From assembly GCA_963760795.1 (NCBI GenBank), contig CAVXEP010000029.1:160001-224000 (forward strand): a stretch of 64,000 nt of DNA, written 5' to 3'. Below the pieces are notes generated by a model. That model made no database searches and was not told the DNA's origin. It saw only the letters and a list, made by a program, of their open reading frames with translations. Made by a program: the position numbers and the translations under genes. The DNA comes from an uncultured delta proteobacterium. Its GTDB lineage: Bacteria > Desulfobacterota > Binatia > UBA9968. Shown piece after piece: positions 8,291 through 52,809 of this stretch. Position 1 is the stretch's first letter. Each line of letters opens with the position of its first letter.

Positions 8291-8305
8291 GCAAATATTA
8301 TGCCA
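8291..8305 (-). promoter_or_regulatory. sigma54 -24/-12 element
   Basis: TGGCATAATATTTGC on the minus strand; box pair at 8345-8360 and 8376-8391. Confidence 0.75.
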
Positions 8306-8699
8306 CTGACTTGCAGCACTAATACGAGGATAAAAACACCTGGCGTCACATATTTGCAAACAAACGCTGCCTTTCATCGCGAATCTGGGACATGAATAGA
8401 GATGCTGCTGCTCAATGTCATCTATAAAGATGCCGGCAGCTATTTCTATTTCTTGAGGAGTCATTTCACGACGATTAAGTCGCTACGACGAATTCCTTCG
8501 GATGAACTATCCCCCTTGCATAACCATGAGAGACTATCCTCTGCCTTTTACCATCCCGGGGCGACCAGGTGCTGTTGAAGGATCGCTGTTCTTGCTGTGC
8601 GAGTATTCCCAGGCATCACATCTGCGGCACAGCAATCGCAAATCAATGGGGCAACTCGGATTGTCGGTTAATTCCTTTCAGGTAACTAGGAATAATACT

Positions 8700-9100
8700 T
8701 CCCTCGATTCCGCCGGCTGCTACCACCGAACAAAAGTCCAACAAGTTCGAAGGCATTATTTTTCATTGCGCTCGAGGAGATTCGGCTCTCGATGTGGATC
8801 GAAGAGGAGGTGCAAAAGCGTTTCGGTTCGAAACGACAAGCTAAGGAAGAAATTCTCGCCCGCTACACCAGCTTAATCTATATGGGAAACGGCCAGTACG
8901 GGTTTGCCAGCGCAGCGCAATACTATTTTGGCCGGCCGCTGGCGAGGTTCACCGCCAATGACGCCGACCAGGCGGCGCTACTCGCCTGGCATCGCCAAGC
9001 GCCGCGTTACTACGCGCCCATCCCGATGGATACGCAGCGAGTGCTGCGCCGCCGAAATCAAACCCTACGACTGATGGCCGCCAGCCGTGCAATACGAACC
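8700..9100 (+). pseudogene. Fragment of a GT51 transglycosylase (class A PBP)
   Basis: KEEILARY...IYMGNGQYGFASAAQYYFG motif; both termini missing or frameshifted. Confidence 0.65.
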
Positions 9101-9418
9101 GTCGCGGAAAGGAAAAATAACATTGGGAGCGAAAAGGTTGCTGGTCTCCGATCTATAGAGGCTGTGGAGTACTACGTGAACTTTTTGTCAAAGCACCGCA
9201 AGGGGCATTAACGTTTGCCGAAACCGAAGAGCGGTTTGTTGGCAAGTAGCGACAAGGGATTGTTTGCTTATAGGAATCATCTACGCGAGCTTGCGCATGG
9301 TCATGCGCCGATACCCGCGCCGGCGCAGTCGGTGTGCCGGCCACAACAGGCTTGAATGAAAACCGCAGTGGTACCAAGATCCCGACACTATTGAAATTTT
9401 TCGCTCGACTTAAAAAGT

Positions 9419-9433
9419 TGGTCTCAAAATTGC
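9419..9433 (+). promoter_or_regulatory. Candidate sigma54 -24/-12 element
   Basis: TGGTCTCAAAATTGC, 16 bp before ATG 9450. Confidence 0.5.
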
Positions 9434-9449
9434 CTTCTCTGGACCCATT

Positions 9450-9884
9450 ATGACATTTTTAGAATCTACCCGATTTGATCAGACCGAACAGACCATAAAC
9501 CGGATCTTCCAGCCCGACCCGCTTACCCCGTACGATTATCTTAGGACCTCGCGGCGATCGGTGCACCTGGAACCGGAGAAACATTTGATGCATGCGATTC
9601 TGGAGGAAGCGATCAAGACATACCGCTTGCATGTTTCGACCAAATCCAAGCGCGAGCATAGGCTGTTTCTAGAAGCGGAACTCTGGATTATGGACCGTAA
9701 CGATGATTGGCTGTTTTCATTTGAAAATCTATGCGAGGTCTTGGGTTTAGATCCCGATTTCGTGCGCAGTGGCTTGGCTCGTTGGAAAGAACAGCAGGTC
9801 GGCCCTGCGGTGGTGCGGAAGACGCCACGTTACCGGGATCGAAGCGCGCGCCAGAGATCTGCGATAAAGCCTGCTTCCCCATAG
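9450..9884 (+). CDS. Hypothetical protein (EPEKxLMxAILEEAI...WLFSFENLCEVLGLDP family)
   Basis: Coherent 144-aa ORF with a helical, possibly HTH-like C-terminal motif. Confidence 0.75.
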   Translation: MTFLESTRFDQTEQTINRIFQPDPLTPYDYLRTSRRSVHLEPEKHLMHAILEEAIKTYRLHVSTKSKREHRLFLEAELWIMDRNDDWLFSFENLCEVLGLDPDFVRSGLARWKEQQVGPAVVRKTPRYRDRSARQRSAIKPASP

Positions 9885-9943
9885 GGCGTAGCTAAATAGC
9901 GGCTTGATTCAGCAATCGTCTTTTGATTATCTACATCTTGCAC

Positions 9944-9990
9944 GTCCCAAAATTGGGACAGCGGTAATTCAATCGTCCTGTAAATGAGAC
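9944..9990. promoter_or_regulatory. Tandem 16-bp enhancer-like palindromes
   Basis: GTCCCAAAATTGGGAC (9944-9959) and GTCCTGTAAATGAGAC (9975-9990), 31-bp period. Confidence 0.75.
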
Positions 9991-10031
9991 AGAGCGTTAG
10001 GTAAAGTCGTTATAAATTGCCGTCTCATTTT

Positions 10032-10046
10032 TGGCACGTGGATTGC
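10032..10046 (+). promoter_or_regulatory. sigma54 -24/-12 element of the bEBP gene
   Basis: TGGCACGTGGATTGC, a match to the TGGCACG-N4-TTGC consensus. Confidence 0.85.
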
Positions 10047-10080
10047 CCCTAACGACCCTATAGTTACAGGAGAGAGGGTT

Positions 10081-11440
10081 ATGCAAGGTAATATTCTAGT
10101 TGCCGAAGATGAATTGTTGCCGAGAAAAAATATCTGCCGGGTTCTTGAAGACGAGGGATATCAGGTTCATGAAGCCGCCGACGGGAGCGCGGCTATAGAA
10201 GCAGTCGACAAAAATGATTTAGATTTAATTCTTCTGGATTTAAAGATGCCGGGCGCCGACGGCATGACGGTGCTCAAGCATGTGCGACAAGCATCGCCGC
10301 AGACTCTAGTGCTGATCATGACCGCTTACGCCTCCATCGAAACCTCGGTTGAGGCGCTTCGCCTAGGCGCGCAGGATTATATCCTTAAACCAATCGTGCT
10401 CGATGGCGTGGTGAAGAAAGTGCGCACTTTGATGGAGAATAAGCGGCTTGCTTGGGAAATCCAAACCCTGCGTCGACAACTCAACCGCGACTTCGAGACC
10501 ACCGAATTGATCGGAAATAGCCTCGCCACTGCGGAAATTCTCGAGGTGATCGAGAAAGTGGCGCCGACCAACTCGACCGTTTTGATTAGTGGCGAGAGCG
10601 GTGTCGGAAAAGAGGTGGTGGCTCGCACCATTCATAAGCAAAGCACGCGCAGCGACAAAACTTTTCTGGCGGTTAACTGCAGCGCGATCCCGGAAACCCT
10701 GCTGGAAAGCCAACTCTTTGGTCACGTTAAGGGTGCTTTTACCGGTGCCTCGAATTATCAGGAGGGCTTATTTCAGCGCGCCAACGGCGGAACTATTTTC
10801 TTGGATGAGATCGGCGAGATGCCGCTCATTTTGCAGCCGAAAATTTTGCGCGCCATTGAAGAAAGAGCGGTAACACCCATCGGCGCGGCCAAGCCGCTAC
10901 CAGTCGATGTGCGGATCATTGCCGCGACCAATCGGACGCTAAAGCAAGAAGTCGACGAAGGAAAGTTTCGCGGCGACCTATATTACCGCTTGAACGTCAT
11001 TCACCTTGATGTCCCGCCGCTGCGTGAGCGGCGTGAAGACATCCCGCTGCTGGTCGAACACTTCATCCGGCGCCAGAATAGCGAGCTCAAGAAAAACTAC
11101 CAGGGCGTGGAAAGCAGTGCGTTGAAAGGTCCTCATGTCGCTGCCATGGAAAGGAAACATTCGCGATCTTAATAACGTGCTCGAGCGCGCCATGATTCTC
11201 GGCAATGGAGACTGGATCACGGTCAAAGATCTGCCGCGCTGGGAAGTGCCCGAGGAAGATGCCGACCGCGCCGTCGGCCACGGCCATGATCTCAGGCGAA
11301 CGGTTCGCGCCTTTGAAAAAAGTCATATTGAAAATGTTCTGAAGGAAACCGACGGGGACCGGACCCAGACCGCTGAATTGCTCGGCCTGAGCCGCTCGTC
11401 TTTATATCGCAAACTCGAAGCATTAGGGATTGAATCTTAG
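10081..11440 (+). CDS. NtrC/AtoC-family sigma54-dependent response regulator (REC-AAA+-Fis HTH); +1 frameshift near 11127
   Basis: REC LLDLKMP, Walker A GESGVGKE, GAFTGA, FLDEIGE, FRGDLYYRLNV; continues as PWKGNIRDL and HTH TAELLGLSRSSLYRKL in the +1 frame. Confidence 0.92.
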
Positions 11441-11689
11441 ATCTGAATAGCGGGAATTTTATTTATCCAGGTCGCGTGAGTTGTGCTAGAGACGGTCATC
11501 GCCAGGAAGACCCATTCGGTGACGAGTAAAAAACAACATCATTGCAGAGCTATCCACGGCACTAGTCAGTATGCCCGCTATTAGGATTTTATTAATAGAC
11601 ATGAAGCAGGAAGGATCGAAGACTATTTAAATCTACGATCCTTCAAGCGCCTCGCTTGGGCGGGTTTTTTACTACGCGCCCGACTTGTT

Positions 11690-11893
11690 TTACCTCTCTA
11701 CCTTATCCACCCAATCGGCGACGCGGCGTTCCGCCTCATCTTTGCTCAGGCCGTATCTTTCCTGGACCTTGCCGATCAATTGATCCCGTTTGCCGGCGAT
11801 CCGATCAAGCTCGTCATCGGTGAGTTCGCCCCAATTTTCCTTGATCTTACCCTTCATCTGTTTCCACTGCCCCGAAATCGTGTCCCAATTCAT
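11690..11893 (-). CDS. csbD: CsbD/YjbJ general stress protein
   Basis: MNWDTISGQWKQMKGKIKENWGELTDDEL...GKVQERYG; RBS GGAGG. Confidence 0.93.
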   Translation of the reverse strand: MNWDTISGQWKQMKGKIKENWGELTDDELDRIAGKRDQLIGKVQERYGLSKDEAERRVADWVDKVER

Positions 11894-11936
11894 AAACTAC
11901 CTCCACAAAGAAATTTGCTAACGAATCGCTATAAGA

Positions 11937-11951
11937 GCAAAAGATATGCCC
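11937..11951 (-). promoter_or_regulatory. sigma54 -24/-12 element
   Basis: GGGCATATCTTTTGC; box pair at 11992-12007 and 12023-12038, 31-bp period. Confidence 0.7.
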
Positions 11952-12047
11952 GCAGCCAATGTGACATGACCTATGGAGATGGACATCATTAATCGCAAGT
12001 TTAGGACAGGAGGAAATGCGATGTTTCTGCCTTGGGACAAATGCGCT

Positions 12048-12689
12048 CTATCGGAGCGAGCGGCGAAGAAGCACAAACGTAATGATCCCAGCGGCGCTTA
12101 ACCCGACCAGAAGCCCAATGTCCGTCCAATGACTATACTGTAACGCGGCCAATAGTTGGTCGCCAACCACGACAGTGGTCAGAGTGCCGGGTATGAGTCC
12201 TATGAAAGATCCGATGATGAAGGTGCTGAACCGGATGCCGAGCGCGCCCACGAACATGTTAACGACTGTAAATGGCGCCACTGGCAACATGCGTATCACT
12301 ACGACCGCGAAGATACCGCCACCTTTAAGTTTGGCGGCGATAGTTTCGAAGCGCTGGCGTTGCGTTCCTTGGCTGCGCGGTGGTCCATAGGTGGCGCCAA
12401 ACCAGAAAGCCATGGCTGCGGCGAGAATTAATCCCGTCAGACCGTAGACTGCCGTGCGCCACGGACCGAAAATACCAACGAAGGCCAAGGTTAGCATCGG
12501 TCGTGGAAATAAAATTAACGAGGCGGCTACATAGCTTGCAACAATGATCAAGGGAGCGGCAGGATGTCTTTCTAAAGGTTCACTCCAAAGCCGGAGCTGG
12601 TCTGCGTCCATTTTTTGTAGAGGGCTCCAGTGCCACAAGGCGATTAAGAAAAGTGCCGTCGCCAGAACTACAAAAATATTACGCGACAT
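12048..12689 (-). CDS. TVP38/TMEM64 (DedA/VTT) membrane protein
   Basis: IRMLPVAPFTVVN and FIIGSFIGLIPG motifs. Confidence 0.85.
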   Translation of the reverse strand: MSRNIFVVLATALFLIALWHWSPLQKMDADQLRLWSEPLERHPAAPLIIVASYVAASLILFPRPMLTLAFVGIFGPWRTAVYGLTGLILAAAMAFWFGATYGPPRSQGTQRQRFETIAAKLKGGGIFAVVVIRMLPVAPFTVVNMFVGALGIRFSTFIIGSFIGLIPGTLTTVVVGDQLLAALQYSHWTDIGLLVGLSAAGIITFVLLRRSLR

Positions 12690-12777
12690 AAGGCGTACGC
12701 CACAGCCTTTAAATAATTGTCAGTAGGTACTACTCGATGCAGCGCCGCTTCTACTAAGGATCCGTTCTATAGAACGC

Positions 12778-12822
12778 AGGCGCCGTCCGTCTCTGGTTCG
12801 GGCCAAGAGACGAACGGCGCCT
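12778..12822. terminator. Strong hairpin downstream of ORF 12851-13846
   Basis: AGGCGCCGTCCGTCTC...GAGACGAACGGCGCCT; no clear U-tract. Confidence 0.5.
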
Positions 12823-12850
12823 ACGAAGTTTTCTGTGTAGCAACGATCGT

Positions 12851-13846
12851 TTACTTTAACCCGAGCGCGGTCGTCGTTTTTTCATCCAATTGTCCGGTCA
12901 CCGCGATATTTTTCGCCTTCTGAAAATTGCGCAATGCCTCCTGCGTGCGCGGACCAAAAACTCCATCCGGTTGGCCGGTCTGGTAGCCAAGGTCATTTAA
13001 CTTCGATTGCGCCTGACGCACTTCCTGCGTGCTAGCGGGCTGCGAGTCACGCATTCCTGCATCGTTGCGCGTATCGCTGCGTCTCGCGCTGCGCCCGCCC
13101 TGGTTCGCTTCCAAAGCCCGCTCTGTCGCTTCCGCTTGCCACATATTAGTCGTCACATCGATTTTGGTCGCCTTGCGGGTTGTCTTATCGAAATCGAGTT
13201 GCACTTCGTAACTGTGATCGGCTTTGACGATTTCCCACTCGGCATAATCGGGCTTATCGCTGTTAACCGACGTGATTTTCCACCCCATTTTTTCCAGCTC
13301 GCGACGGTAGACGTCCTTGTCTTGTCCCGGTTTTAACGCTTGCTCGAGCTGTTCTTTGCCTTTAGTCCAATCAGCTCTGCGGTCGCGGTCGCTAAACCGA
13401 GCATCGCCTCGACCCATGGCGGCTACCTTGGTTCCTTTCAGAGCTTTTTTAGTGGCATCCGCTTTCCACATGTTGGTGGTTACGTCGACTTTGCTAGCTT
13501 TATTGCCTTTATCAAAATCGATCTGCACTTCGTAGCTCTGATCGCCTTTTACAATTTCCCACTCGGCGTAATCGGATTTGTCGCTGTTCACGGCTGTGAT
13601 CAGCCAACCCGCTTTCTCGAGCTCCTTGCGATAAAAATCCTTGGATTCACCCAGCTTTAAATTTTGTTGCAACACTTGTTTCTGTTTGTTCCAGTCGGCG
13701 CTGCGGTCGCGGTCGCTATAACGTCCGGCTGGAGTGCTTGGCACACTGTCGCTGCGCTGAGCCCACGCGAGTTGTGGCGACAAAGCGAGAATTCCGGTTA
13801 ACACCGCGGACCCGCTCATCTTCAATTTCCTTACTGAGATTTTCAT
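12851..13846 (-). CDS. Exported protein with two ~95-aa internal repeats (PepSY-like) and a C-terminal peptidoglycan-binding domain
   Basis: Signal peptide (AWA-Q); duplicated R.SDRDR.ADW...EWEIVK...YEVQ.DFDK unit; LNDLGY..G.PDGVFGPRTQEALRNFQ. Confidence 0.85.
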   Translation of the reverse strand: MKISVRKLKMSGSAVLTGILALSPQLAWAQRSDSVPSTPAGRYSDRDRSADWNKQKQVLQQNLKLGESKDFYRKELEKAGWLITAVNSDKSDYAEWEIVKGDQSYEVQIDFDKGNKASKVDVTTNMWKADATKKALKGTKVAAMGRGDARFSDRDRRADWTKGKEQLEQALKPGQDKDVYRRELEKMGWKITSVNSDKPDYAEWEIVKADHSYEVQLDFDKTTRKATKIDVTTNMWQAEATERALEANQGGRSARRSDTRNDAGMRDSQPASTQEVRQAQSKLNDLGYQTGQPDGVFGPRTQEALRNFQKAKNIAVTGQLDEKTTTALGLK

Positions 13847-13909
13847 TTCTTGCTCCTTTCGTTTTGCACTAAATTTTTACTTAGCACACTGTTTTTAAAT
13901 TCGATAAAA

Positions 13910-13924
13910 GCAACCGTCGTGCCA
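13910..13924 (-). promoter_or_regulatory. sigma54 -24/-12 element
   Basis: TGGCACGACGGTTGC, a consensus match. Confidence 0.85.
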
Positions 13925-14190
13925 GCTCTGGTGTGAATAGTCGCGAGGCTGCATGGATATCGAGCGACAAAGTGATTGTCCCGCGATGCAATTGCTTGTA
14001 GATGGTGGACTGAAAACCTGTGTTTGTATTGCAATGGTAGCGCGCAAACGGGACGGTGGTGGGTAAATCTCACCCTGTGGCAGTTTACCGTGCGTTATGC
14101 CCTAGGCTGGGGCGAAGCACAAATAAGGAACTTGCCTTACCCGTGCCTGCGCCCAACTTGGCCGTTCGTCCTTATCTAAATTTATGAGAG

Positions 14191-14460
14191 GTTACGGTTT
14201 GTTCGCTGTCCGGTTACCGCCCCACACAAAACCGATGCCGATGGCGGCAATATGATTGCCGCGGTTGGTGTTGTTGTCGATGTCTTTAAACGACTAAAGA
14301 AATATTCGTAGCGATAGCCGAGATTCAGAAAGGCCTGCTCGTCGAAGAACAATTTCAAGCCGGCGTTCGGGTCGATAACGCCGGTGATATCGCGATCGTT
14401 ATAGAACGCGCCGATGCTGCCACCCAGATAGGGTGCAGCTGCAATTGGCAACGGCATTAA
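14191..14460 (-). pseudogene. C-terminal fragment of an outer-membrane beta-barrel protein
   Basis: PYLGGSIG, AGLKLFF, LNLGYRYEYFF, then after a frameshift IGIGFVWGG; no signal peptide or N-terminus. Confidence 0.5.
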
Positions 14461-15033
14461 GACTGCTCCCACGAGAAAGAGAGCGGCTAAAATAAATTTA
14501 CAGACCGCTAACAGAGGAGCAAAAATACCACCGCGGCATGGCGACAAATCGCAATTATAAAATAAATACTTTTCAACTACGAAGCCAATATTGTCCCGCA
14601 AACGGTGAAAAAGGTGAGACGATGTGTAGGCGTTAAGACAGAACCTGGAATCAGCGTGGCATGTTTCACGAACCCCAAAATATGCTTTTCACGTCCTGAA
14701 ATTGGCACAACAGATTTGATTATGTCTTATTATTGGAACAGAACATCTTTTTTAAGTGATCAAAACGTTTTTCAACTATGCGTGTTTTCGTGCATTTGTA
14801 ATTTTTCATTTCATGATTAACCCGTCGCACTGTCGATCAAACTTCTCGCTATGACAGTTAGAAGACTTCGTCGCAAGCGTAAGGTGCGGCAGCCTTTGAA
14901 TCGCAGGATGGGGCTTCACTGGCTCGGGGTTGGGCCCCGATGCCACCGTGGGGATTGAGGCGTCCCCCGCGATTTACCTCAGTGTGATCATGGTTAAGAA
15001 CTAATAGTTAAATAAATCAGACGGTGAGAGTTA

Positions 15034-15069
15034 GTCCCGTTTTTGCGACGGCGATCCCTACTTTGAGAC
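15034..15069. promoter_or_regulatory. Tandem 16-bp enhancer-like boxes
   Basis: GTCCCGTTTTTGCGAC and ATCCCTACTTTGAGAC, 20-bp period. Confidence 0.6.
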
Positions 15070-15201
15070 GTCGTGCTGAATCTTTATTTCAAAGCGCGAT
15101 TCCAATAACGCGGCTCATTATATCAACCGAAATTCGTTAGCCAAATCTTCAAACGATGCGAATTGTTAATCTTTGTATTTGCAAGCGTTGTGAGTCTTTT
15201 A

Positions 15202-15216
15202 TGGCATGCTGTTTGC
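15202..15216 (+). promoter_or_regulatory. sigma54 -24/-12 element
   Basis: TGGCATGCTGTTTGC. Confidence 0.8.
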
Positions 15217-15261
15217 GGTAATTACGATCAAATTCAAGGACGAACATGCGGAGGATATAAC

Positions 15262-15876
15262 ATGGCGGACAGCTCATTTCTGACCGATGTCAAAACTTTA
15301 CGTGAACGGGCGCGTCGACACATCGAACGGGGCGCTGTGACGGAGGGTTACCAAGCCGACCGAGAGGTGGTTTTGAAACTCTTGAATGAAGCGCTAGCTA
15401 CCGAGCTTGTTTGCGTCTTGCGCTACCGGCGCCACTATTTCATGGCTAACGGTATCCACGCTGGAGCCGTGGCCGACGAATTTATGCAGCACGCCAACGA
15501 AGAGCAGGCTCATGCCGATCAAATTGCCGCTCGTATCGTGCAATTAGGCGGCGCACCCAATCTCTCCCCAGAAGGTATGTTAGCGCGAAGCCACTCCGAA
15601 TATGTTGAGGGTGATTCGCTGACTGATATGATTCGCGAGGACCTGGTTGCTGAACGCGTTGCCATCGATAGCTATAAGGAGATGATTCAGTATCTCGGCA
15701 GTAAAGATCCTACTACACGCCGGATGATCGACGGGATTCTAGCAGTCGAGGAAGAACACGCAGAAGATCTGGCGACACTTTTGGAACGGTATGATCAGCC
15801 GGCCTACGCGGGTTCTGTGTCACTGCAAAAAATGAACGATGACGCCCTTGCGATGCATAAGGAAAAGCAGGATTAA
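15262..15876 (+). CDS. Ferritin-like/bacterioferritin-family diiron protein
   Basis: LNEALATE, EEQAHAD, DLVAERVAI, EEEHAEDL ferroxidase ligands; RBS GGAGG before ATG 15262. Confidence 0.9.
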   Translation: MADSSFLTDVKTLRERARRHIERGAVTEGYQADREVVLKLLNEALATELVCVLRYRRHYFMANGIHAGAVADEFMQHANEEQAHADQIAARIVQLGGAPNLSPEGMLARSHSEYVEGDSLTDMIREDLVAERVAIDSYKEMIQYLGSKDPTTRRMIDGILAVEEEHAEDLATLLERYDQPAYAGSVSLQKMNDDALAMHKEKQD

Positions 15877-15955
15877 AGCGGTCTCGCCGCAATGATTTGC
15901 GAAATCAGGCGATTCGATAGCGCTGGCAGTTACTTCCCGCTAGCGTTATTCCCCC

Positions 15956-15993
15956 GAGACAGATGAGCGGCGATTGCGCTGCTCATCTGTCTC
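15956..15993. terminator. 17-bp stem hairpin
   Basis: GAGACAGATGAGCGGCG-ATTG-CGCTGCTCATCTGTCTC. Confidence 0.55.
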
Positions 15994-16070
15994 CCTCCCT
16001 CTACTGATAAACATTTTAGGTAGCGACCTGCATCATAACAATAGCAAATTTATCGATGAGGTTTTATTAT

Positions 16071-16448
16071 ATGACGAACGAGATTAAGATCATTACGTTA
16101 GGATTGGCTCTCGGGATAGGATTTATCGGTTGCTCGCGTGAAAGTGACAATCAGGCTCGCGAAACCACAACGACGCGCGACAGCACTACAACCACGACAG
16201 TACCGGCAACCCCTAACCCGACGCTGAGCAGTTCGGATCTAGAAAATGTCGTAAAAGCGAAACTTCAAAGCGACGATCAACTGCGTGTGGCGAATATTAA
16301 CGTTAATGCCGACGCCGACAAGAAAGAAATCACTCTGTCCGGCACAGTGACATCGCAAGAACAGCGTAAACGCGTCCTTGATTTGGCTAAAGAAGCGCAC
16401 GCAGGGTTAACCATTAACGACAAGATCGATGTCAAGCCCATGTCGTAA
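16071..16448 (+). CDS. BON-domain (OsmY-like) lipoprotein
   Basis: Lipobox-like FIGC; VKAKL...INVNAD...ITLSGTV. Confidence 0.85.
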   Translation: MTNEIKIITLGLALGIGFIGCSRESDNQARETTTTRDSTTTTTVPATPNPTLSSSDLENVVKAKLQSDDQLRVANINVNADADKKEITLSGTVTSQEQRKRVLDLAKEAHAGLTINDKIDVKPMS

Positions 16449-16541
16449 ATTGGTCGCGTTACTTGAGGTGGCGCAGATGCGCCGCTTCAGACGAAAAACA
16501 CAAAGGATCGTCAAAATCATGAATACTTAAACTGGAGGTTT

Positions 16542-17072
16542 ATGCACATGCCGAACGCAATTCAAATGGTTAAACAGGACCACAAGAAGGTTGCAAACCT
16601 GTTCGACAAATACAAACACACTAAGAAAGAAGAAGCCAAACGGCGGATTGCCGAACAAGCCATGGAACAGTTGGAGGTTCATGCCTTGGTGGAAGAGGAC
16701 ATCTTTTATCCTGCGGTCAAAAAAGCACTAGGAGACGGAGCGTTAATTCACGATGCGCTTAAAGAACATCAGGTGATCAAAGAGTTGATCGAAGAACTCA
16801 AGATTATCGAGGATTACGATGAGGATTTCGAAGAGAAATGGTCTGAACTCGTAGAAAACGTTCAAAATCATGTCAACGAAGAGGAGAGCGACCTCTTGCT
16901 GCAGGCTGAAGAAAGCGAACTTGATCTTGTTAACTGCGGCGCACTGATGACAGAGCGCAAAGAAAAGGCGATCGAGGAAATTGGCGCCAGCTCAATGGCC
17001 CATACTGGAAAATTACGTCCCGGCTCGAGATCGAAAAACTCGACAAAACACTCAGAAAGCCGGCACGCATAG
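16542..17072 (+). CDS. Hemerythrin-like HHE cation-binding protein
   Basis: KQDH, LEVHALVEEDIFYP, EH, HVNEEE motifs. Confidence 0.88.
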   Translation: MHMPNAIQMVKQDHKKVANLFDKYKHTKKEEAKRRIAEQAMEQLEVHALVEEDIFYPAVKKALGDGALIHDALKEHQVIKELIEELKIIEDYDEDFEEKWSELVENVQNHVNEEESDLLLQAEESELDLVNCGALMTERKEKAIEEIGASSMAHTGKLRPGSRSKNSTKHSESRHA

Positions 17073-17433
17073 TTCAGTCCGATCCCCAATCCCACGGGTG
17101 TTCGCCAGCGCGCAGATCATACTTCGCAGTCACGCGGCAGAACGCGCGCTGGCGGCCTGTCGTCAAAAACATAAAATCCTAGTGAAAAAGAAAAGCTCGG
17201 AACTGCGCGGCGATACTCACGGTCGCCGCGCATTCCGAAACCAGGAAGGTCGTTACACTCGGCCCATTAGAGCCAGAACGATGATGATTATAAGGACTAA
17301 TCCAAGGCCACCGCTGGGATAGTAGCCCCAGCCGCTGCTGTAAGGCCAACTGGGCAAAGCTCCTACTAATAGAAGAATTAAGACAATTATTAATACGGTT
17401 CCCATAGCGTTATCCTTTCCATTGTCGTGTAGG

Positions 17434-17580
17434 TTACTTTAGCGCTAACGATTTTCCCACGAGTATCAGGGCGACGCCGCCGATCATCCCGGCGCCGGCA
17501 AGCAGCGGTGGAATCGCAATGGATTCGCATTTCTCCTCTGTGCTTGATCTTGTTGTTCTGCATCCATGAAAACCACCTCC
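17434..17580 (-). pseudogene. Remnant of a small membrane protein (IPPLLAGAGMIGGVALILVG)
   Basis: Hydrophobic C-terminal helix preceded by a frameshifted GGFSW segment. Confidence 0.35.
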
Positions 17581-17772
17581 TTTCGATTTCTCGAACTGGC
17601 GATGGAGCAACACACATGCCAGTGCGATAGCGGAATTCACGACGCCCCATAGTTATTCACAGGGGGATATAGCGCATTGATGTCCCAAAACCGCGAAGGA
17701 GAGAAAGAAGCATTCCAAGCTTTGGGACACGGCGGGTTGTGTTCACACACTGTATGAAGGTGAATTATTATC

Positions 17773-17787
17773 TGGCATATGAGTTGC
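17773..17787 (+). promoter_or_regulatory. sigma54 -24/-12 element
   Basis: TGGCATATGAGTTGC; box pair at 17682-17697 and 17713-17728, 31-bp period. Confidence 0.8.
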
Positions 17788-17849
17788 GTTGAGTCGCGGT
17801 GAATAGTTAAAAGACATCGACAAAAATATTGGAGTCGCTGGAGGTTCTT

Positions 17850-18187
17850 ATGGATTATGCAGAAGGTGTTGCTCAAGGCAGAATGGGTCGTAGGGAAGAT
17901 GAGCGGGACGACATCGGCCGCAAAGTAAGCAATGCGGCTTCTGAAGTGCGCGCCGGGATCACTAATTTCGTCGACGGCAGTTAAGCAAAAAATACCAAGC
18001 TGATGCGGTTCGCAAGATGAGTGATACCGCGTGCGAAGTCACCGATCAGGTCAGGGGATACATCGAGGATCGCGGAATCCGGGGATTGACGGATGATGTT
18101 ACCGATTTGATTCGCCGCTATCCGATGCCTGCTTTGTTATGTGGAGTCCTGATCGGTGTGTTATTGGCGCGTCCACGGGGAGATTAA
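17850..18187 (+). CDS. ElaB/YqjD-like tail-anchored membrane protein (not in the ORF track; two +1 frameshifts)
   Basis: GGAGG RBS; repaired translation ends DVTDLIRRYPMPALLCGVLIGVLLARPRGD; 338-2 = 336 nt. Confidence 0.7.
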
Positions 18188-18189
18188 CC

Positions 18190-18642
18190 ATGGCTGCATT
18201 GAAGCCTACACCCGATCACGCCAGTTGGTCCGACCTGATCGCGGGAATTGTGACAGATGCAACGCAGCTGTTTCACAAAGAGGTCGAACTGGCCCGACTA
18301 GAGATTGGTAATGATTTACGTAACGTCAAAGCGCTGCTAACGGGAATCGTAATTGGTGGGATACTCGCAGTTTTAGGTTTAGGCTTGCTTTGCGTTGGGT
18401 TGGCGTTGGCACTTTTTACCTATACGACATTGCCGCAATGGGCTTGCTTCGCTGTGGTTGGCGGAGCGATGCTGGTGGCCGGCGTCTGCTTTATTGCCGC
18501 GGCTAACCGAAGCAAAAAGAAAGTCGATCTAATTCCTCAGCGGACCGTTGAGGCTGTGAAGGAGGATATCGGATGGATCACATCGACAATCAGGACATCG
18601 AACGCAATCTCAAAGACCGCGAACAAACTCGAAAGGCGCTAA
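18190..18642 (+). CDS. YqjE-like 'phage holin superfamily III' membrane protein
   Basis: LFHKEVELARLE, two TM helices, P.RTVEAVKED.W. Confidence 0.85.
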   Translation: MAALKPTPDHASWSDLIAGIVTDATQLFHKEVELARLEIGNDLRNVKALLTGIVIGGILAVLGLGLLCVGLALALFTYTTLPQWACFAVVGGAMLVAGVCFIAAANRSKKKVDLIPQRTVEAVKEDIGWITSTIRTSNAISKTANKLERR

Positions 18643-19130
18643 CGCAAAAGTTAGAGACGCTGGAGACACGTATGCAGGACAATATCGAGCAAGTTAAAGA
18701 GTCGGTGCGACATAGCACAGATTTAAAATACCAAGTGGGCAAGCGTCCCTGGGTAATGTTTGGTTTATCAATAGTGTTGGGTGGTGTGGCCGGGCGCCTG
18801 TTCATGGGTAATCGTCAATCGTTAAGTGCGCGCTCGCGCTCGGAAATCGAGGATATCCTACACAAAGCGAGCGACGCATCAAGCAAAAGCTTTCAAACCT
18901 TGGCCGACAATGTAAACCTCGACCAGTACGCTAAGCATTTTAGTCTAATTAAGAACGCCTCCATAGGCGCGATGACTTCGCTTGCCGTCGAATTGGCCCG
19001 TCGTGTCGTGCCCGCCATCCTAACCCAAATCGATAAGTACTCTAAAAGCACAAACCTCAACAACACCACCGAGAAGGTTCGAGAAGCGGACGAGCAATTA
19101 CAAGATCGATTCAGAACCTCGGTTCAGTAA
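18573..19130 (+). CDS. DUF3618/YqjK-like protein
   Basis: IE...EQTR..L..KLETLE coiled coil; RPWVMFGLSIVLG TM segment; RBS AGGAGG. Confidence 0.7.
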   Translation: MDHIDNQDIERNLKDREQTRKALTQKLETLETRMQDNIEQVKESVRHSTDLKYQVGKRPWVMFGLSIVLGGVAGRLFMGNRQSLSARSRSEIEDILHKASDASSKSFQTLADNVNLDQYAKHFSLIKNASIGAMTSLAVELARRVVPAILTQIDKYSKSTNLNNTTEKVREADEQLQDRFRTSVQ

Positions 19131-19227
19131 GTTCGTGATCTGGTCAAAGCTTTCGCGTGGGTCTTAGCAGAAAAGCGCACCCAATGGGGAAAGCGTCCAG
19201 AGTTTGCGAACCAGTGCAGTGTCGCAT

Positions 19228-19242
19228 CGGCAAACCCCTTGC
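19228..19242 (+). promoter_or_regulatory. Candidate sigma54 -24/-12 element
   Basis: CGGCAAACCCCTTGC; degenerate box at 19195-19210. Confidence 0.55.
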
Positions 19243-19324
19243 TGCGACAATTATGGCGCACTTCTATAGTGTTCGCAGCGAGGGCTAATTGCGCGCTGAC
19301 CGTTTGTTAAACGCACCTTTTAAC

Positions 19325-21139: not shown

Positions 21140-21249
21140 CTAAAAGCAACTGACAGTCGAAGGGTCGCCATATGACGTTGTTCCTTAAAACAGCCCGCAT
21201 GAGTCTCACCGATTGAAAGTTTTGCTATCGCAATACGGGGTTGCAAAAC

Positions 21250-21264
21250 TGGTACGAAGTTTGC
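21250..21264 (+). promoter_or_regulatory. sigma54 -24/-12 element
   Basis: TGGTACGAAGTTTGC. Confidence 0.7.
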
Positions 21265-21370
21265 TGACATTAAACTCAGAGGAATGATCCAATCGACGAG
21301 ATAATGGGAAAATTTTACCAATCGCGTCTTCGGGATTTTCTACCGACGACGGCCAAGCGAAAGTAAATAA

Positions 21371-21658
21371 ATGACTACAACGGATCTTGATAAAGCGCTG
21401 GTCGATGCGCGGGCCGTGTTTAAGCGGCCCGAAGATGTTGTCACGGCAAGCGATCTCACGCGGGAGCAAAAGATCGAAATTTTGCGCCGATGGGAATACG
21501 ATGCCAGAGAAATTCAGGTCGCCGAGGAAGAAGGAATGACCGCTCCGCCATCGGCGCCTCAGAGTGCGCCCTTGGATCTGATACTCAAAGCGCTACGTGC
21601 ATTGGGGGCGCCGTCGAGTGTTGAAAACTCTGCACCGACAAAACAGGGTGGTTCTTAA
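21371..21658 (+). CDS. Conserved hypothetical protein (FxxPEDVV...EQKIEILRRWEYDA...EEGM)
   Basis: Coherent 95-aa ORF downstream of the sigma54 element. Confidence 0.75.
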   Translation: MTTTDLDKALVDARAVFKRPEDVVTASDLTREQKIEILRRWEYDAREIQVAEEEGMTAPPSAPQSAPLDLILKALRALGAPSSVENSAPTKQGGS

Positions 21659-22107
21659 AGACCCTGGGTTTCCGGCGTCGGTGCTCCCCGCGCGTTAGAA
21701 TTTTGCGCTCGGTTTGCCTTCATCAGATCCAGAGGCAGAGTTACGCAAAATACCGTGCTGTTGCCAAGTTCATTCGTGTAATCGATCGAACCTTGATCCG
21801 TCGAGACGATTATTCAACCACGGCGAGTTCGATGCCGAGCCCTTAGATTTGCCGTGATCAGCGGTTTAAAGACTTTCAATTCAGAAAAAAATTCCCATCT
21901 TGGTATCGGCATCTTCCGAGAAGAGCTTGTTGTCGCTGCAATAACCGCGCAGCGTGAGTGTGCCCCCTTGAGGCGTCGCTTACGCGGCGTTCTGCAGAGT
22001 AGGTCTTCTGCCCGGCCACTTGGGCGGTCAACGAGGTTCGGTTGGTCGGCTCAAGTCCACGTTGCAGGTTCGGACTTGAACAAAAACCATCTTCTCGATT
22101 AAATCTC

Positions 22108-38934: not shown

Positions 38935-38949
38935 AGGCAGGACGGTTGC
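38935..38949 (+). promoter_or_regulatory. Candidate sigma54 element
   Basis: AGGCAGGACGGTTGC. Confidence 0.55.
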
Positions 38950-42157: not shown

Positions 42158-42172
42158 GCAAGGAGCATGCCA
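42158..42172 (-). promoter_or_regulatory. sigma54 -24/-12 element
   Basis: TGGCATGCTCCTTGC; boxes at 42224-42239 and 42256-42271, 32-bp period. Confidence 0.8.
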
Positions 42173-44787: not shown

Positions 44788-44802
44788 TGGCACGTTAGTT
44801 GC
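44788..44802 (+). promoter_or_regulatory. sigma54 -24/-12 element
   Basis: TGGCACGTTAGTTGC, a consensus match; box ATCCTAATTCTAGGAC at 44720-44735. Confidence 0.85.
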
Positions 44803-48151: not shown

Positions 48152-48166
48152 TGGCATGCGCGTTGC
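48152..48166 (+). promoter_or_regulatory. sigma54 -24/-12 element
   Basis: TGGCATGCGCGTTGC; boxes at 48053-48068 and 48085-48100, 32-bp period. Confidence 0.8.
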
Positions 48167-48184
48167 GATTTATTTGGCGCAATC

Positions 48185-50122
48185 ATGAAACATCAACTCG
48201 TGAGCGGTGCCACGGCACGATCTCCACGTCGATACTCGGACATACGAAGACTGCCCATCGGTGCGGAAGTGACGGCAGCCGATGGCGTTCATTTTCGCGT
48301 GTGGGCGCCTAGCTGTGAACGCATCGAAGTTGTTTTTGAAGCGGTCAACGGAATGCCGGCAATAGCGGCGCTGGAGCTCGAGGCGGAGGATGGGGGTTAT
48401 TTCTCGGGCGCGGCGAGTGCAGCGCAAGCCGGCATGCTTTATCGCTTTCGTCTCAATGGCAGCGATCAACTCATTCCCGATCCGGTATCTCGATTCCAAC
48501 CTGAAGGGCCCCATGGTCCATCGCAGATAATCGATCCGAGCCGATTCGCTTGGAGCGACACCACTTGGCTAGGCGCGGAGCTTCTCGGCCAGGTGCTCTA
48601 TGAGCTCCATATCGGCACTTTCACGCGCGAAGGAACCTGGCGCGCGGCGCAGGACGAGCTCAAAGAACTAAAAAACTTGGGCATCACGGTGATCGAAGTA
48701 ATGCCGGTCAATGAATTTGCCGGGCGATTCGGTTGGGGTTACGATGGCGTCGATCTATTTGCGCCGACTCACCTGTACGGCGAGCCCGATGATTTTCGCC
48801 ACTTTGTCGATCATGCACATGCTTTGGGCATCGGGGTCATTCTCGATGTAGTTTACAATCATCTGGGGCCCGACGGTTGTTACGTCAAGTTGTTTTCCGA
48901 TCACTATTTCAGCGCCAAGCATACGACCGACTGGGGCGAGGCGATCAATTTCGACGGCGACCAGTGCCGGCCGGTGCGCGAATTCTTTCGCTGCAATGCG
49001 GGCTACTGGATCGAAGAGTATCATCTCGACGGCCTGCGGCTCGACGCGACGCAAAATATTTATGACGATTCCACGCCGCATATTATCGCCGAAATAGCCG
49101 CGGAGGTCAGAAAAGTTGCGGCACCGCGCGCGACCATCATTATCGCCGAGAATGAATCGCAAGATGTTAAATTGGTGCGCCCGGCAAGCGCCGGCGGCTA
49201 CGGTTTGGACGGCATGTGGAATGACGATTTCCATCACAGCGCGCGGGTTGCCCTCACCGGCGAACGCGAGGCGTATTATACCGATTACCTGGGCACGCCG
49301 CAGGAGCTGATCTCAGCGCTCAAGTGGGGATTTTTATATCAAGGCCAATGGTATCAATGGCAAAAGCAACGGCGCGGCACGCCGACTCGCGGCTTGAAGC
49401 CGAGCACGTTCGTGACCTTCCTGGAAAACCACGATCAGATCTGCAACTCGGGTTTTGGCGAGCGAATCCAATTTGCCTCTCATCCGGGTTGCTACCGGGC
49501 GTTGACCGCGTTGTTGCTGCTGGGACCGGGGACGCCGCTCTTATTCATGGGCCAGGAGTTCTGCGCTTCATCCCCCTTCGTCTTTTTTGCCGATCACAAG
49601 CCTGAGCTAGCCAAATTGGTCTACCAGGGCCGGCTCGAGTTCGTTAGTCAATTTACCAGTCTTGCGACCCCCGAGTCCCAGGCAAGAATCCCCGATCCCG
49701 CCGCTTGGCAGACCTTCGAAGCTTGCAAGTTGAAACTCGCCGAGCGCGAGGAGCACAAACCAATCTACCAGCTGCATCGCGATTTATTAAAACTGCGGCA
49801 CGACGATGCGGTGTTTCGCGCTCAAGGCGCGCACGGCTTTGACGGCGCGGTATTGGCGCAGAAAATTTTTATCCTGCGCTTTTTCGGCTCAGAGGAAGAA
49901 GGGGACCGCCTCCTTGTCATCAACCTCGGTATCGATTACGTTTATGACCCGGCTCCGGAACCGCTCCTGGCGCCGCCGGAGAAATCGCAATGGCAAATCG
50001 TCTGGTCGAGCGAAAGTCCGGTATACGGCGGCCGGGGGACAACGCCGTTCGGTACACAAAATTGGAAAATCCCGGGGTACGCGGCGATCGTTCTGGCGTC
50101 AATAAGCGTTGACATGATTTAA
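48185..50122 (+). CDS. treZ: Malto-oligosyltrehalose trehalohydrolase (GH13)
   Basis: FRVWAP, DPVSRFQPEGPHG, WGYDGV, DVVYNHLGP, GLRLDA, WNDDFHH, NHDQ. Confidence 0.9.
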   Translation: MKHQLVSGATARSPRRYSDIRRLPIGAEVTAADGVHFRVWAPSCERIEVVFEAVNGMPAIAALELEAEDGGYFSGAASAAQAGMLYRFRLNGSDQLIPDPVSRFQPEGPHGPSQIIDPSRFAWSDTTWLGAELLGQVLYELHIGTFTREGTWRAAQDELKELKNLGITVIEVMPVNEFAGRFGWGYDGVDLFAPTHLYGEPDDFRHFVDHAHALGIGVILDVVYNHLGPDGCYVKLFSDHYFSAKHTTDWGEAINFDGDQCRPVREFFRCNAGYWIEEYHLDGLRLDATQNIYDDSTPHIIAEIAAEVRKVAAPRATIIIAENESQDVKLVRPASAGGYGLDGMWNDDFHHSARVALTGEREAYYTDYLGTPQELISALKWGFLYQGQWYQWQKQRRGTPTRGLKPSTFVTFLENHDQICNSGFGERIQFASHPGCYRALTALLLLGPGTPLLFMGQEFCASSPFVFFADHKPELAKLVYQGRLEFVSQFTSLATPESQARIPDPAAWQTFEACKLKLAEREEHKPIYQLHRDLLKLRHDDAVFRAQGAHGFDGAVLAQKIFILRFFGSEEEGDRLLVINLGIDYVYDPAPEPLLAPPEKSQWQIVWSSESPVYGGRGTTPFGTQNWKIPGYAAIVLASISVDMI

Positions 50123-50160
50123 CGATTTGAAACCTGCCTAGAACTGTTTTGGAGGGACCT

Positions 50161-52378
50161 ATGCGAGTGTGGCCGGGGAAACCTTATCCGTTAGGGGCGA
50201 CATGGGATGGCAAAGGGGTCAACTTTGCATTGTTTTCAGAATCGGCGAGCAAAGTTGAACTCTGTCTATTCGATGGCAGTCGATGCCAGTCAAGAAGCTC
50301 AGCGCTTGGAATTAACCGAACGCACCGATCAGGTCTGGCATGCCTATCTCCCGGAAGCGTTGCCGGGGCAGCTCTACGGCTATCGCGTGCACGGTCCTTA
50401 CGAGCCAAGCCAAGGCCATCGCTTCAATCCGCACAAGATCGTCCTCGATCCCTATGCTAAATCCATCGGCCGGGAGCTGCGCTGGGCGGACGAAGTTTTC
50501 GCTTACCGCATGGGCGACCCGGAAGCCGACCTCACGTTCGACGAGCGGGACAGCGCGCCTTATGCTCCCTTGGCGGTGGTCATCGATCCGGCTTTTACCT
50601 GGGGCGATGACAAGCCGCCGCACACGCCCTGGCATAAGACGATTATTTACGAGTTGCACGTCAAGGGTTTTACCAAACTGCATCCAGGAGTCGGCGAACC
50701 GCTGCGCGGCAGTTATGCCGGGTTGGCCTCGGAGGTGGTGGTCAATCACCTACTCAATCTAGGGGTCACCGCCGTGGAGCTGATGCCGGTGCATCAATTT
50801 ATCAACGATCGCCATCTGGTCGACCGCGGCAAAGTTAATTATTGGGGCTACAACTCGCTGGCCTATTTGGCGCCCGAGTGCCGCTATAGCGCCACCAGTA
50901 TTCCCCAGGACGCGGTGCAGCAGTTTAAAATGATGGTGGCGGCGTTTCATGCCGCAGGCATCGAGGTCATTCTCGACGTGGTCTACAACCACACCGCGGA
51001 GGGCAATCAGCTTGGCCCGACGCTGTCGCTGCGCGGCATCGACAACGCAGCCTATTACAAACTCACACCCGAGGATCAGCGTTTTTACATGGACTATACC
51101 GGCTGCGGCAATTCCCTCAATGTGCGCCATCCGCGGGTCTTGCAGCTGATCATGGACAGCCTGCGCTATTGGGTTGCCGACATGCATGTGGACGGCTTCC
51201 GTTTCGACCTCGCCAGCACCTTGGCGCGGGAACTTTATGAAGTAGATCGCCTTGGCGCGTTTTTCGACATTATTCATCAAGACCCGACTCTGTCACAGGT
51301 CAAATTGATCGCCGAACCTTGGGATGTCGGGCCAGGCGGCTATCAAGTGGGTAATTTCCCGGTGCTATGGAGTGAATGGAATGGCAAATACCGCGACGGC
51401 GTCCGGCGCTTTTGGAAAGGCGACGGCGGCACCCTGTCGGAATTTGCCACGCGCCTGAGCGGCAGCAGCGATCTTTATCAAAGTGACGGCCGTAAGCCAT
51501 ACGCCAGCATCAACTTCATCACCTGCCACGACGGTTTCAACTTGCAAGATCTGGTGAGCTACAACGAGAAGCACAATGAGGCCAATGGCGAAAATAATCA
51601 GGACGGCGCCAACGACAACAACAGTTGGAACTGCGGTGTGGAGGGCCCCACCGACGATCCCGCTGTGAACGCGCTGCGCTGGAAGCAAAAGCGCAACCTG
51701 ATCGCCACGCTCTTATTTTCTCAGGGTGTGCCGATGCTTTTAGCCGGCGATGAGCTGAGCCACACGCAGCAAGGCAACAACAACACCTATTGCCAGGACA
51801 ACGAGCTTACCTGGCTCGATTGGGAACTGACAGATGAGGAGCAGGATTTTCTCGAATTCGTCAAACAGATGATTTCCATCCGCCGCAGCCAACCGGTCTT
51901 TCAACGGAGCAAATTTTTTCAGGGGCGGCCAATCTTCGGCGGCGATGAGAGCGACATCACCTGGTTCGAGCCTTCGGGCAAGCCGATGGGCGAAGCGGCA
52001 TGGAGCGCCGGATTTAACCAGTGCTTCGGCGTGCGCATGCCGGGCGATTTGATCGGTGAAGTCGATGATCGCGGGCAGGAGATCAAAGGCGATTCGATCT
52101 TGATTCTGATGAACGCTTTCCACGAACCGATTCCCTTCAAGATTCCGGCGCGCGTCAAGGGGCAGCGCTGGCAACGCTTGATCGACACGGCGCTCCCCGG
52201 CACCGCGCGTAATTGGTTTGCCAGCGGCAAAGCTTACGATCTCAAAGGCCGATCGATGGTCGTGTTCCGCACGGTGGCGGGCGATTTGGCGGTCGACCCG
52301 CCAAGGCGCCGCGCCGCGGCCGCACACTCGCGAGCGCGGCGCCAACCCTTAAAGACGGCATCGGGCAAGCGGAAATAG
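50161..52378 (+). CDS. glgX: Glycogen debranching isoamylase (GH13); +1 frameshift at ~50276
   Basis: [50 protein letters not shown]. Confidence 0.93.
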
Positions 52379-52794
52379 ATAGTTCGACAACGGGGAGAGA
52401 CCCACTCGAAGGGACATAAAAGCCGCGGCGAGCGGGGACCAAGCAGGACGAGCGTCGATTAATAAATTATCTTTCCGGCGCCGCGCGAACAGCAACGCTT
52501 TTAACTCCCGTTTGCTGAAGCCGCCGGTATGCGGCAGGTTAGGTGGCCCAGCGACTATCGCGATGTAGGATCGGCTATGCCCATCGCGAGCCCTCGATGA
52601 CTACTCACAAAACGTTCAATCCCACCGCGAAGTAATTCGCCCCCGTCTTCTCTTAATCGGCACGCGAGCCACGCCGCATACCTGAAAAATCTCAGCAGTC
52701 CTCGAGGACGGTGTTCCGTTTCATCTCCGGGAAATTTTATCAGCCTTTGGGTCACATCCAAGACACTTCGTCATTCTGACGGGGTATGCATGGT

Positions 52795-52809
52795 TGGTAC
52801 GTTCGTTGC
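52795..52809 (+). promoter_or_regulatory. sigma54 -24/-12 element
   Basis: TGGTACGTTCGTTGC. Confidence 0.75.

Follow-up and report, generated by a model that had tools for sequence, protein, structure and literature searches.

How do bacteria without the classical stress sigma factors organise their stress genes? General stress responses are the textbook case of control by alternative factors of the sigma-70 family, as in the regulons of RpoS in Gammaproteobacteria, SigB in Bacillota and EcfG in Alphaproteobacteria. To our knowledge, the way in which such gene sets are organised in many phyla without those factors is largely unknown. The question is raised by a stretch of 64,000 nucleotides (the window), corresponding to C29:160001-224000, i.e., positions 160,001 to 224,000 of contig C29, in the metagenome-assembled genome of an uncultured member of the class Binatia (genome label G000; 6.58 Mb in 35 contigs, 88.9% complete). 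An island of genes for stress-related protein families occupies 7.2-55.6 kb of this window; its G+C content, about 0.48-0.57 per 2 kb, is below that of the genome's contigs, which are 56-58% G+C (0.556-0.581 per contig). From the sequence evidence set out below, it is probable that the island assembles stress-protection and dormancy genes on sigma-54 promoters, and that a response regulator encoded within it is the likeliest activator of most of them; the general stress role is suggested by gene families and content.

Predicted sigma-54 promoters of the island

The initial annotation of the window had listed 22 GG-N10-GC elements as sigma-54 promoters preceding nearly every island operon, and the described element is indeed present on the strand given at every one of them. 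The bare motif is not enriched, with 785 matches in the window against 756.4 expected and 12 of 100 shuffles reaching 785, and it was dropped as a statistic in favour of the extended consensus TGGYAY-N5-TTGC. The enrichment over shuffled sequence that the annotation anticipated thus fails for the bare element and appears with the full consensus, which has 13 matches in the window against 0.47 expected, a count reached by none of 100 dinucleotide-preserving shuffles of the window. All 13 strict matches fall within 8291-52809. Across the genome there are 110 strict matches, compared with 32 when the genome is reversed without complementing and about 30 under a first-order Markov model; the 45-kb island accounts for 13 of these and C29:168-330 kb, a region that makes up 2.5% of the genome, for 26.

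Twelve of the strict sites were already among the 22 (8291-, 10032+, 13910-, 15202+, 17773+, 21250+, 29769-, 38070+, 42158-, 44788+, 48152+ and 52795+, the sign giving the strand), and a thirteenth, at 17607-17621 (-), had been missed. Three near-strict sites with 1-1.5 mismatches (11937-, 34136- and 37892-) complete a strong set of 16, so that 15 of the listed elements stand as strong promoter candidates. Three weaker variants (9419+, 30021+ and a GA variant at 31168) are kept in the relative G003, and the last four (19228+, 30858-, 38935+ and 42468+) are weak and doubtful as promoters. Among these four, 42468+ has two mismatches and faces an insertion in the matching G003 region. The weak site at 19228-19242 (+) also has two mismatches and has GTGCAGTGTCGCA abutting it; that at 38935-38949 (+) is a weak match with GTGCAGTGTTGCA abutting, and these two sites, like 30858-, lie in DNA that is not alignable with G003. 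The sequence GTGCAGTGTYGCA (TGCA-N4-TGCA) has only two copies in the 6.58-Mb genome, both in the island on the plus strand (19214-19226 and 38921-38933), and each lies 1-2 bases upstream of one of these two weak sites, outside G003-alignable DNA. The 16 strong sites stop 19-107 nt ahead of a same-strand start codon or overlap an over-long open reading frame (ORF) call. Spacers and flanks vary among the copies, and the promoters are therefore not copies of a repeat. Between 1 and 8 kb, where the annotation had seen no element before the ABC transporter, xanthine dehydrogenase-type (XDH) and IclR genes, no site occurs within 1.5 mismatches.

The island is syntenic in G003, with 69-84% DNA identity across 7.2-55.6 kb of the window. 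A comparison of orthologous islands, which the annotation had proposed, finds the sites at orthologous places: at the 16 site pairs, 154 of 160 core nucleotides are identical (ten specified positions per site), as are 60 of 80 in the 5-nt spacers, against 173 of 480 and 200 of 480 (about 40%) in the two 30-nt flanks. Two other genomes were considered as second syntenic islands and dropped, G019 because its contig stops just past the activator gene and G017 because only the activator and a few pieces are in common. The genome encodes one rpoN, intact, with a Sigma54_DBD match of 212 bits in a 494-codon open frame that includes region I and the RpoN box, and 26 strong matches to the sigma-54 interaction domain of activators. 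Extended consensus, placement and orientation towards genes, a conserved core and a host rpoN are thus found together, and the proposed wiring of the island genes to sigma-54 is upheld at the level of predicted promoters.

Such sites extend beyond the two islands. Loci of activator orthologues (64-97% identity) in other metagenome-assembled genomes hold 0-10 strict sites each, at least one in 14 of 15, and of 65 other fetched loci 59 have none and six have 1-3. When one csbD locus per genome (two of them truncated) was scanned over 400 nt upstream at up to 1.5 mismatches in 29 other genomes of the class, 13 carried a sigma-54 site in the sense orientation, mostly 51-89 nt from the domain start, and one in the antisense orientation. 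The corresponding figures for BON genes are 9 of 29 and 0 of 29.

The activator and its putative enhancer dyads

Sigma-54 polymerase needs an upstream-bound ATPase activator to open a promoter, and a candidate for these promoters is encoded at 10081-11440 (+), split here into frames 10081-11172 and 11135-11440. Its product has the make-up of an NtrC-family bacterial enhancer-binding protein, with an N-terminal receiver (REC, PF00072), an AAA+ domain (PF00158, 3.2e-70) whose GAFTGA motif is visible in the translation, and a C-terminal HTH_8 domain (PF02954). No NCBIfam equivalog claims it: AtoC is the best match, at 467 bits against a cut-off of 714, and the GlrR/QseF model NF011695 gives 354.7 against 763. 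The orthologue in G003 is intact (452 aa, 94% identical), and the frame is open over 457-474 aa in orthologues of 94-97% identity. A strict promoter at 10032-10046 (+), a consensus site with a counterpart in G003, precedes the gene and would allow autoregulation.

The top hexamer at -180 to -20 of the 16 strong promoters is GGGACA/TGTCCC, with 10 copies against 0.62 expected in the island and 8 against 0.62 in G003, two divergent pairs sharing their upstream DNA so that some copies are counted twice. The hexamers pair as dyads, TGTCCC-N6-GGGACA, i.e., TGTC-N10-GACA. Three putative activator-binding dyads stand before the activator promoter within 9943-10038 (9943-9960, 9974-9991 and 10021-10038), with a distance of 31 bp from the first to the second. 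Orthologues of 93-97% identity show this arrangement too, those of 64-76% have related dyads, and tandem dyads lie upstream of orthologues. Activator homologues of Ignavibacteria (47-49% identity), which have neither sigma-54 sites nor dyads nearby, were rejected as members of the same system. With a position matrix trained on sites from other genomes only, a dyad of at least 10 bits lies upstream of 11 of the 16 strong promoters, compared with 5 of 79 other strict sigma-54 sites and 3 of 400 random segments, and 9 of the 11 are 77-103 bp from the T of the -24 element. The 13 matches of at least 12 bits in the window are all intergenic and within 8.3-44.7 kb; genome-wide, 23 of 57 matches of at least 13 bits fall in C29:150-350 kb, and 14 of 18 dyad-plus-promoter pairs in C29:169-325 kb. 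Mononucleotide block shuffles proved unsuitable as a genome-wide background for the dyad (392 against 115 in the real genome) and were not used.

These features are consistent with a mechanism in which the island's own REC/AAA+/HTH_8 response regulator would activate most of the promoters. We infer that it binds the TGTC-N10-GACA dyads some 80-100 bp upstream of -24, including the three before its own gene, that it receives its input by phosphorylation, and that what it governs is a general stress or dormancy response; a kinase phosphorylating it would turn on all these operons together and lead to more of the activator as well. Candidates for this input are two hybrid histidine kinases (dCache-PAS and PAS-PAS; Pfam, NCBIfam) encoded around a methionine-synthase-like gene at 22826-28825 (+). 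That gene (Meth_synt_2, 25734-26795, +) lies between the two kinase genes and is adjacent to the second also in the relative L037 and in G003; it may assist the kinases in a sensory or metabolic capacity.

Just upstream of the activator gene, a 144-aa hypothetical protein (hyp144) is encoded at 9450-9884 (+), behind a variant promoter TGGTCT...TTGC at 9419-9433 (+) that reads TGGTAT-N5-TTGC at the same place in G003. By tblastn, 9 of the 13 orthologue loci scanned have hyp144 immediately ahead of the activator, at 32-73% identity; G003 has an orthologous ORF, and in loci of 64% identity strict sigma-54 sites precede the orthologues. The protein matches no Pfam family and falls in hypothetical clusters of a protein atlas that are commonest in Candidatus Binatota. 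Its AlphaFold2 model (mean pLDDT 55.8, pTM 0.28) was too poor for a fold search. Possibly hyp144 acts together with the activator or modulates it.

Operons, neighbouring regions and RNA cover

Gene content was assigned from Pfam and NCBIfam, and the ORF map resolves about 25 transcription units, 16 of them at canonical sigma-54 promoters and three at conserved variants; many of the small island ORFs match no family, and Rfam and tRNA scans of the window gave no matches. To the left of the island lie parts of an ABC transporter, a molybdenum hydroxylase, an IclR gene and an integrase fragment, the last an integrase-core (rve) remnant at 6294-6878 (-), at the left limit of G003 synteny (~7.2 kb).

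Within the island, the strict promoter at 8291-8305 (-), conserved in G003 and with a dyad at 8375, precedes two membrane-like ORFs (8247-7184). Beyond the activator, csbD (11893-11690) lies behind GGGCAT-N5-TTGC at 11937-11951 (-), which has a G003 counterpart and a dyad-like site near 12022, and a strict promoter at 13910-13924 (-) serves the first of two peptidoglycan-binding proteins together with a DedA/VTT protein (13846-12048). Genes for ferritin/Dps-like, BON and hemerythrin proteins (to 17072; Pfam, G003) follow the strict promoter at 15202-15216 (+), upstream of which dyads at 14692-14709, 14723-14740 (31 bp apart) and 15033-15050 are spread over 14692-15050. The pairs 9943/9974 and 14692/14723 have the same 31-bp centre spacing, about three helical turns; the latter pair stands some 480-510 bp ahead of the ferritin promoter and some 90-140 bp ahead of a divergent ORF resembling an outer membrane protein (OMP), which has no recognisable sigma-54 promoter. 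The strict promoter that had been missed, at 17607-17621 (-), has a G003 counterpart and diverges from another at 17773-17787 (+), the two having dyads at 17681-17698 and 17712-17729 in common (17681-17729). The rightward member precedes small ORFs, a YqjE-like protein (PF07332), hyp185 and probably the first of two AI-2E transporters (to 21139). The ElaB/YqjD assignment of the initial annotation is not reproduced by Pfam, the YqjE-like protein being the only one found.

Further along, small ORFs of no family follow a strict promoter (TGGTAC) at 21250-21264 (+), with a G003 counterpart. To the right of the kinase genes, a strict promoter at 29769-29783 (-), also with a G003 counterpart, precedes hyp264 (weak YflT similarity), and a variant, CGGAAC-N5-TTGC at 30021-30035 (+), precedes a DUF6496 gene and forms a conserved block (CGGAAY-N5-TTGC) in otherwise divergent G003 DNA. 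The KatE-type catalase gene (katE, 31289-33421; Pfam catalase) is preceded by the variant GGCAC-N5-TTGA at 31168-31182 (+), GGCAY-N5-TTGA in G003. CGGCAT-N5-TTGC at 34136-34150 (-), with a G003 counterpart, stands before small ORFs of no family, and TGGCGC-N5-TTGC at 37892-37906 (-), a 15-mer identical in G003, before PLD/cardiolipin-synthase-like and DUF748 genes (37850-34520). The latter promoter shares a dyad at 37967-37984 (G003 counterpart at 40735) with the divergent strict promoter at 38070-38084 (+), itself with a counterpart in G003, which precedes small ORFs and possibly an archaeal-type glycogen debranching enzyme (39109-41127, over the cut-off). The second peptidoglycan-binding protein (42115-41282) follows a strict promoter at 42158-42172 (-) whose 15-mer is identical in G003. 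Another, at 44788-44802 (+), precedes the second BON gene, hyp195 and the second AI-2E transporter, fragmented here and intact (623 aa) in G003. A topoisomerase IB is also encoded in the island.

The treZ-glgX operon (48185-52378) encodes TreZ (599 bits against an NCBIfam cut-off of 539) and a GlgX-type isoamylase. Its strict promoter at 48152-48166 (+) ends, at the GC, 19 nt before the conserved ATG (48152-48187), and the predicted leader of about 7 nt would therefore leave no room for a ribosome-binding site. The last strict promoter (TGGTAC), at 52795-52809 (+) and with a G003 counterpart, precedes CBS-YflT, BrkB/YihY and the second hemerythrin gene (to 55288). Its 15-mer, TGGTACGTTCGTTGC, occurs at four places in the genome, the others being C29:459399, C22:111085 and C12:216053, and in G003 a similar promoter precedes a paralogue of the CBS-YflT gene, which together suggest promoter-and-gene duplications.

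Just outside the syntenic island are a Fur-family regulator with KatG (55648-58638, -) and a second KatE-type catalase (62112-64000, -); TGGGAC-N5-TTGC is found 50 nt before the Fur gene, and CGGCAC-N5-TTGC at C29:225519 may serve the operon with the second catalase. The combination of sigma-54 sites and dyads goes on for about 100 kb past the window (C29:224001-330000, L114-L119). There, sigma-54 sites, several of them with dyads, precede genes for GlsB/Transgly_assoc, DUF6766, a multihaem cytochrome, Ku with LigD, a CBS-pair protein, a metallophosphoesterase and two M48 peptidases, and the region also encodes a further two activators of the receiver type and a kinase of 2109 aa that has over ten HAMP domains. 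Elsewhere in the genome, dyads precede a csbD gene on contig C5, with TGGTAT-N5-GTGC about 90 bp after them.

Parts of the stretch are carried by 20 public sequencing runs, six of them recorded as RNA. Four of them, two RNA runs of rhizosphere origin from a single study and two DNA runs from soil, were compared with 8001-28000 at 90% likeness, and the soil, rhizosphere and mine-drainage labels of small-share runs were not used for habitat beyond these four. RNA contigs cover the activator (10088-10874 and 10279-11128), csbD (11329-11850), the peptidoglycan-binding and DedA genes in one piece that bridges both (12502-13485), the ferritin operon (15323-15956), and 17124-17573, 17816-19056, 19048-19363 and 20606-21022. 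All of these lie downstream of predicted promoters: contigs end at 17573 and 17554 beside the 17607 promoter, and beyond the 17773 promoter they begin at 17816, where a sequencing adapter abuts the contig end, and span 19048-19363. DNA contigs cross the predicted promoters (9780-10614, 15129-16010 and 17766-19180) and cover the kinase genes and several intergenic stretches for which there is no RNA cover; the parts without RNA cover (8668-10001, 14004-15337 and 22008-26676) are not evidence of silence. The RNA contigs are a weak hint of promoter-bounded units, and they are evidence that near relatives transcribe these genes in soil.

Alternatives, known systems and biological meaning

The initial annotation took the activator encoded in the island as the driver of the whole set. 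This reading is supported by the dyads at 11 of the 16 strong promoters, at which binding is predicted from sequence, and several observations count against it. Five of the 16 have no dyad of at least 10 bits, and the perfect pattern GTCNC-N6-GNGAC is found only four times against 1.05 expected, although it was judged too strict as a test and set aside for the matrix from other genomes. The kinase operon has the reverse arrangement, with a near-perfect dyad at 22674-22691 without an adjoining sigma-54 promoter and no dyad in the matching G003 stretch. No Hpt domain is encoded in the island, which leaves the two hybrid kinases as no more than candidates for the input to the activator. In the activator gene, an additional G near 11127-11128 shifts the frame and places the HTH in another one, so that the regulon here may be silent or run by another activator. 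The dyad of the island is also absent at the 13 class-wide csbD promoters, with a best score of 6.4 bits, which makes the pairing of activator and site lineage-specific (to the genus or near kin) and the sigma-54 wiring broad. Finally, the gene map comes from our own ORF picking rather than a gene caller, and the RNA contigs are the longest pieces from one study, by which 5′ ends and strand are not shown.

Some of these observations would fit a cluster of real sigma-54 promoters that is not one regulon, in which several of the roughly 26 activators of the genome drive subsets and the island activator controls only itself and a few neighbours. The strong promoters without a dyad, the dyad-free csbD promoters of the class, a different palindrome upstream of the 52795 promoter, and the two additional REC-type activators and giant HAMP kinase in the extension of the cluster all favour such a division of labour. 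It is nonetheless unlikely, given that the dyad recurs at a common distance in 11 of 16 island promoters against 5 of 79 other sigma-54 sites and that dyad-plus-promoter pairs are concentrated in one contig region.

Equally improbable is that the system is decaying in this genome, with the activator a pseudogene, other genes broken and the promoters unused relics. The one-base insertion that splits the activator gene is in keeping with decay, as are the integrase fragment at the left boundary and the fragmentation of the second AI-2E transporter (45.9-48.1 kb) and of a class A penicillin-binding protein (PBP; 8792-9211), both intact in G003. On the other hand, three sequencing runs agree on single-base indels relative to the window at 17978, 18000 and 21710, which argues for assembly errors; activator orthologues of 94-97% identity are intact, the promoter cores are kept relative to G003, and near-identical RNA contigs exist. 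The single-base indels, against short-read contigs or against G003, and the broken genes taken together (11127, 17978, 18000, 21710, 45.9-48.1 kb and 8792-9211) point to assembly errors, recent decay or both. For the activator an assembly error is plausible; the read tables show no row for 11127-11128, and one RNA contig ends at 11128.

The stress genes might instead depend mainly on a factor of the sigma-70 family, the sigma-54 sites giving only a conditional boost. The genome has 12 sigma-70-family matches, comprising RpoD, RpoH (over its subfamily cut-off), 8-9 factors of the extracytoplasmic function (ECF) type and a second RpoD-like protein of 509 aa that is below all equivalog cut-offs; this paralogue could also serve stress genes, and both it and the ECF-type factors would be candidates for the role. 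The annotation had asked whether rpoS, sigB or ecfG is present: in a profile search of the genome, no RpoS is found (the best TIGR02394 scores being 293.8 for RpoD, 241-263 for the RpoD-like protein and 190 for RpoH, against a cut-off of 378.7) and no SigB/F/G (121 for the SigBFG model against 234), PhyR/EcfG models not having been searched. With no RpoS, SigB or RpoH-independent stress sigma factor over a curated cut-off, and with no strongly conserved block besides the -24/-12 cores within 75 nt around each site, we regard predominant sigma-70 control as very unlikely. Scarcely credible, despite the background frequency of bare GG-N10-GC, is a chance cluster or a repeat element unrelated to transcription, given that no shuffle reaches 13 strict matches, that spacers and flanks differ between copies, and that orientation, gene distance and the conserved footprint are consistent.

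We therefore return to the preferred interpretation, in which stress-protection and dormancy genes stand on sigma-54 promoters that are mostly activated by the island's own response regulator, and compare it with known systems. The gene content largely coincides with that of the RpoS, SigB and EcfG regulons, an overlap that is textbook knowledge: CsbD, BON/OsmY-like proteins, Dps/ferritin, KatE-type catalase, trehalose and glycogen enzymes, YflT/YtxH/DUF948-type and GlsB-type proteins and, in some, Ku-LigD. In those regulons, however, a sigma-70 factor is freed by proteolysis or partner switching, whereas the island has -24/-12 promoters and would use an ATP-driven activator. In Myxococcus xanthus, an organism of the 'delta-proteobacterial' type, Nla-type sigma-54 activators control many starvation and sporulation operons, a programme of starvation or dormancy like that proposed for the island; the activators, binding sites and developmental context differ from those of the island. 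In Borrelia burgdorferi, the Rrp2-RpoN-RpoS pathway places a response-regulator activator and sigma-54 atop an adaptive programme (PMC4014564). As described there, sigma-54 drives rpoS and RpoS drives the effectors, whereas the predicted sigma-54 promoters of the island stand directly before effector genes.

The closest analogue of the binding site is that of GlrR/QseF (YfhA) of Enterobacteriaceae, for which three TGTC-N10-GACA sites about 100 bp upstream are reported to activate the sigma-54 promoter of glmY (PMC3045617). Both are REC-AAA+-HTH activators, the outer half-sites and the spacing of the dyad TGTCCC-N6-GGGACA in the island are those of the GlrR site, and three sites precede the island activator gene. 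Unlike the island, with its dyads at no fewer than 11 stress-protein operons, GlrR drives one or two small-RNA genes, and the island activator scores below the GlrR cut-off. The survey of sigma-54 functions by Francke et al. 2011 (PMC3162934) is a comparative genomics of sigma-54 regulons; by term search, its main text does not mention trehalose, glycogen, catalase or osmotic, and the gene set of the island is thus not among the themes of that text. A term search of the text of the Binatota genome paper likewise finds no mention of sigma factors, RpoN or two-component systems, and literature searches, which did not cover supplements, returned no sigma-54-driven general stress island and no paper on sigma factors of Binatia or Binatota. 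The mechanism is ordinary sigma-54 biology; the content and scale are new.

Since sigma-54 promoters are silent without an activator, a stress or dormancy response wired in this way would be tightly shut off until phosphorylation induced it like a switch, and would so differ in behaviour from one of the RpoS type. The island provides a defined set of promoters, a candidate for the enhancer code and one for the activator, all testable in a surrogate host although the organism is uncultured, and gives a sequence signature by which stress regulons may be recognised in metagenomes of the class Binatia. It is possible, and we offer it only tentatively, that Binatia, an uncultured class of soils and sediments without RpoS, SigB or a known EcfG (PhyR not having been searched), have put their stress and dormancy programme directly under sigma-54, and that in this genus one autoregulated two-component activator fires 14 or more operons by way of an enhancer code like that of GlrR. 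By the same reading, these operons would provide protectants, catalase, iron storage, trehalose and glycogen turnover, membrane remodelling and Ku-LigD repair. If true, the bacterial general stress response would have a fourth architecture, one that is gated by ATP, responds all-or-none and has no leaky basal expression.

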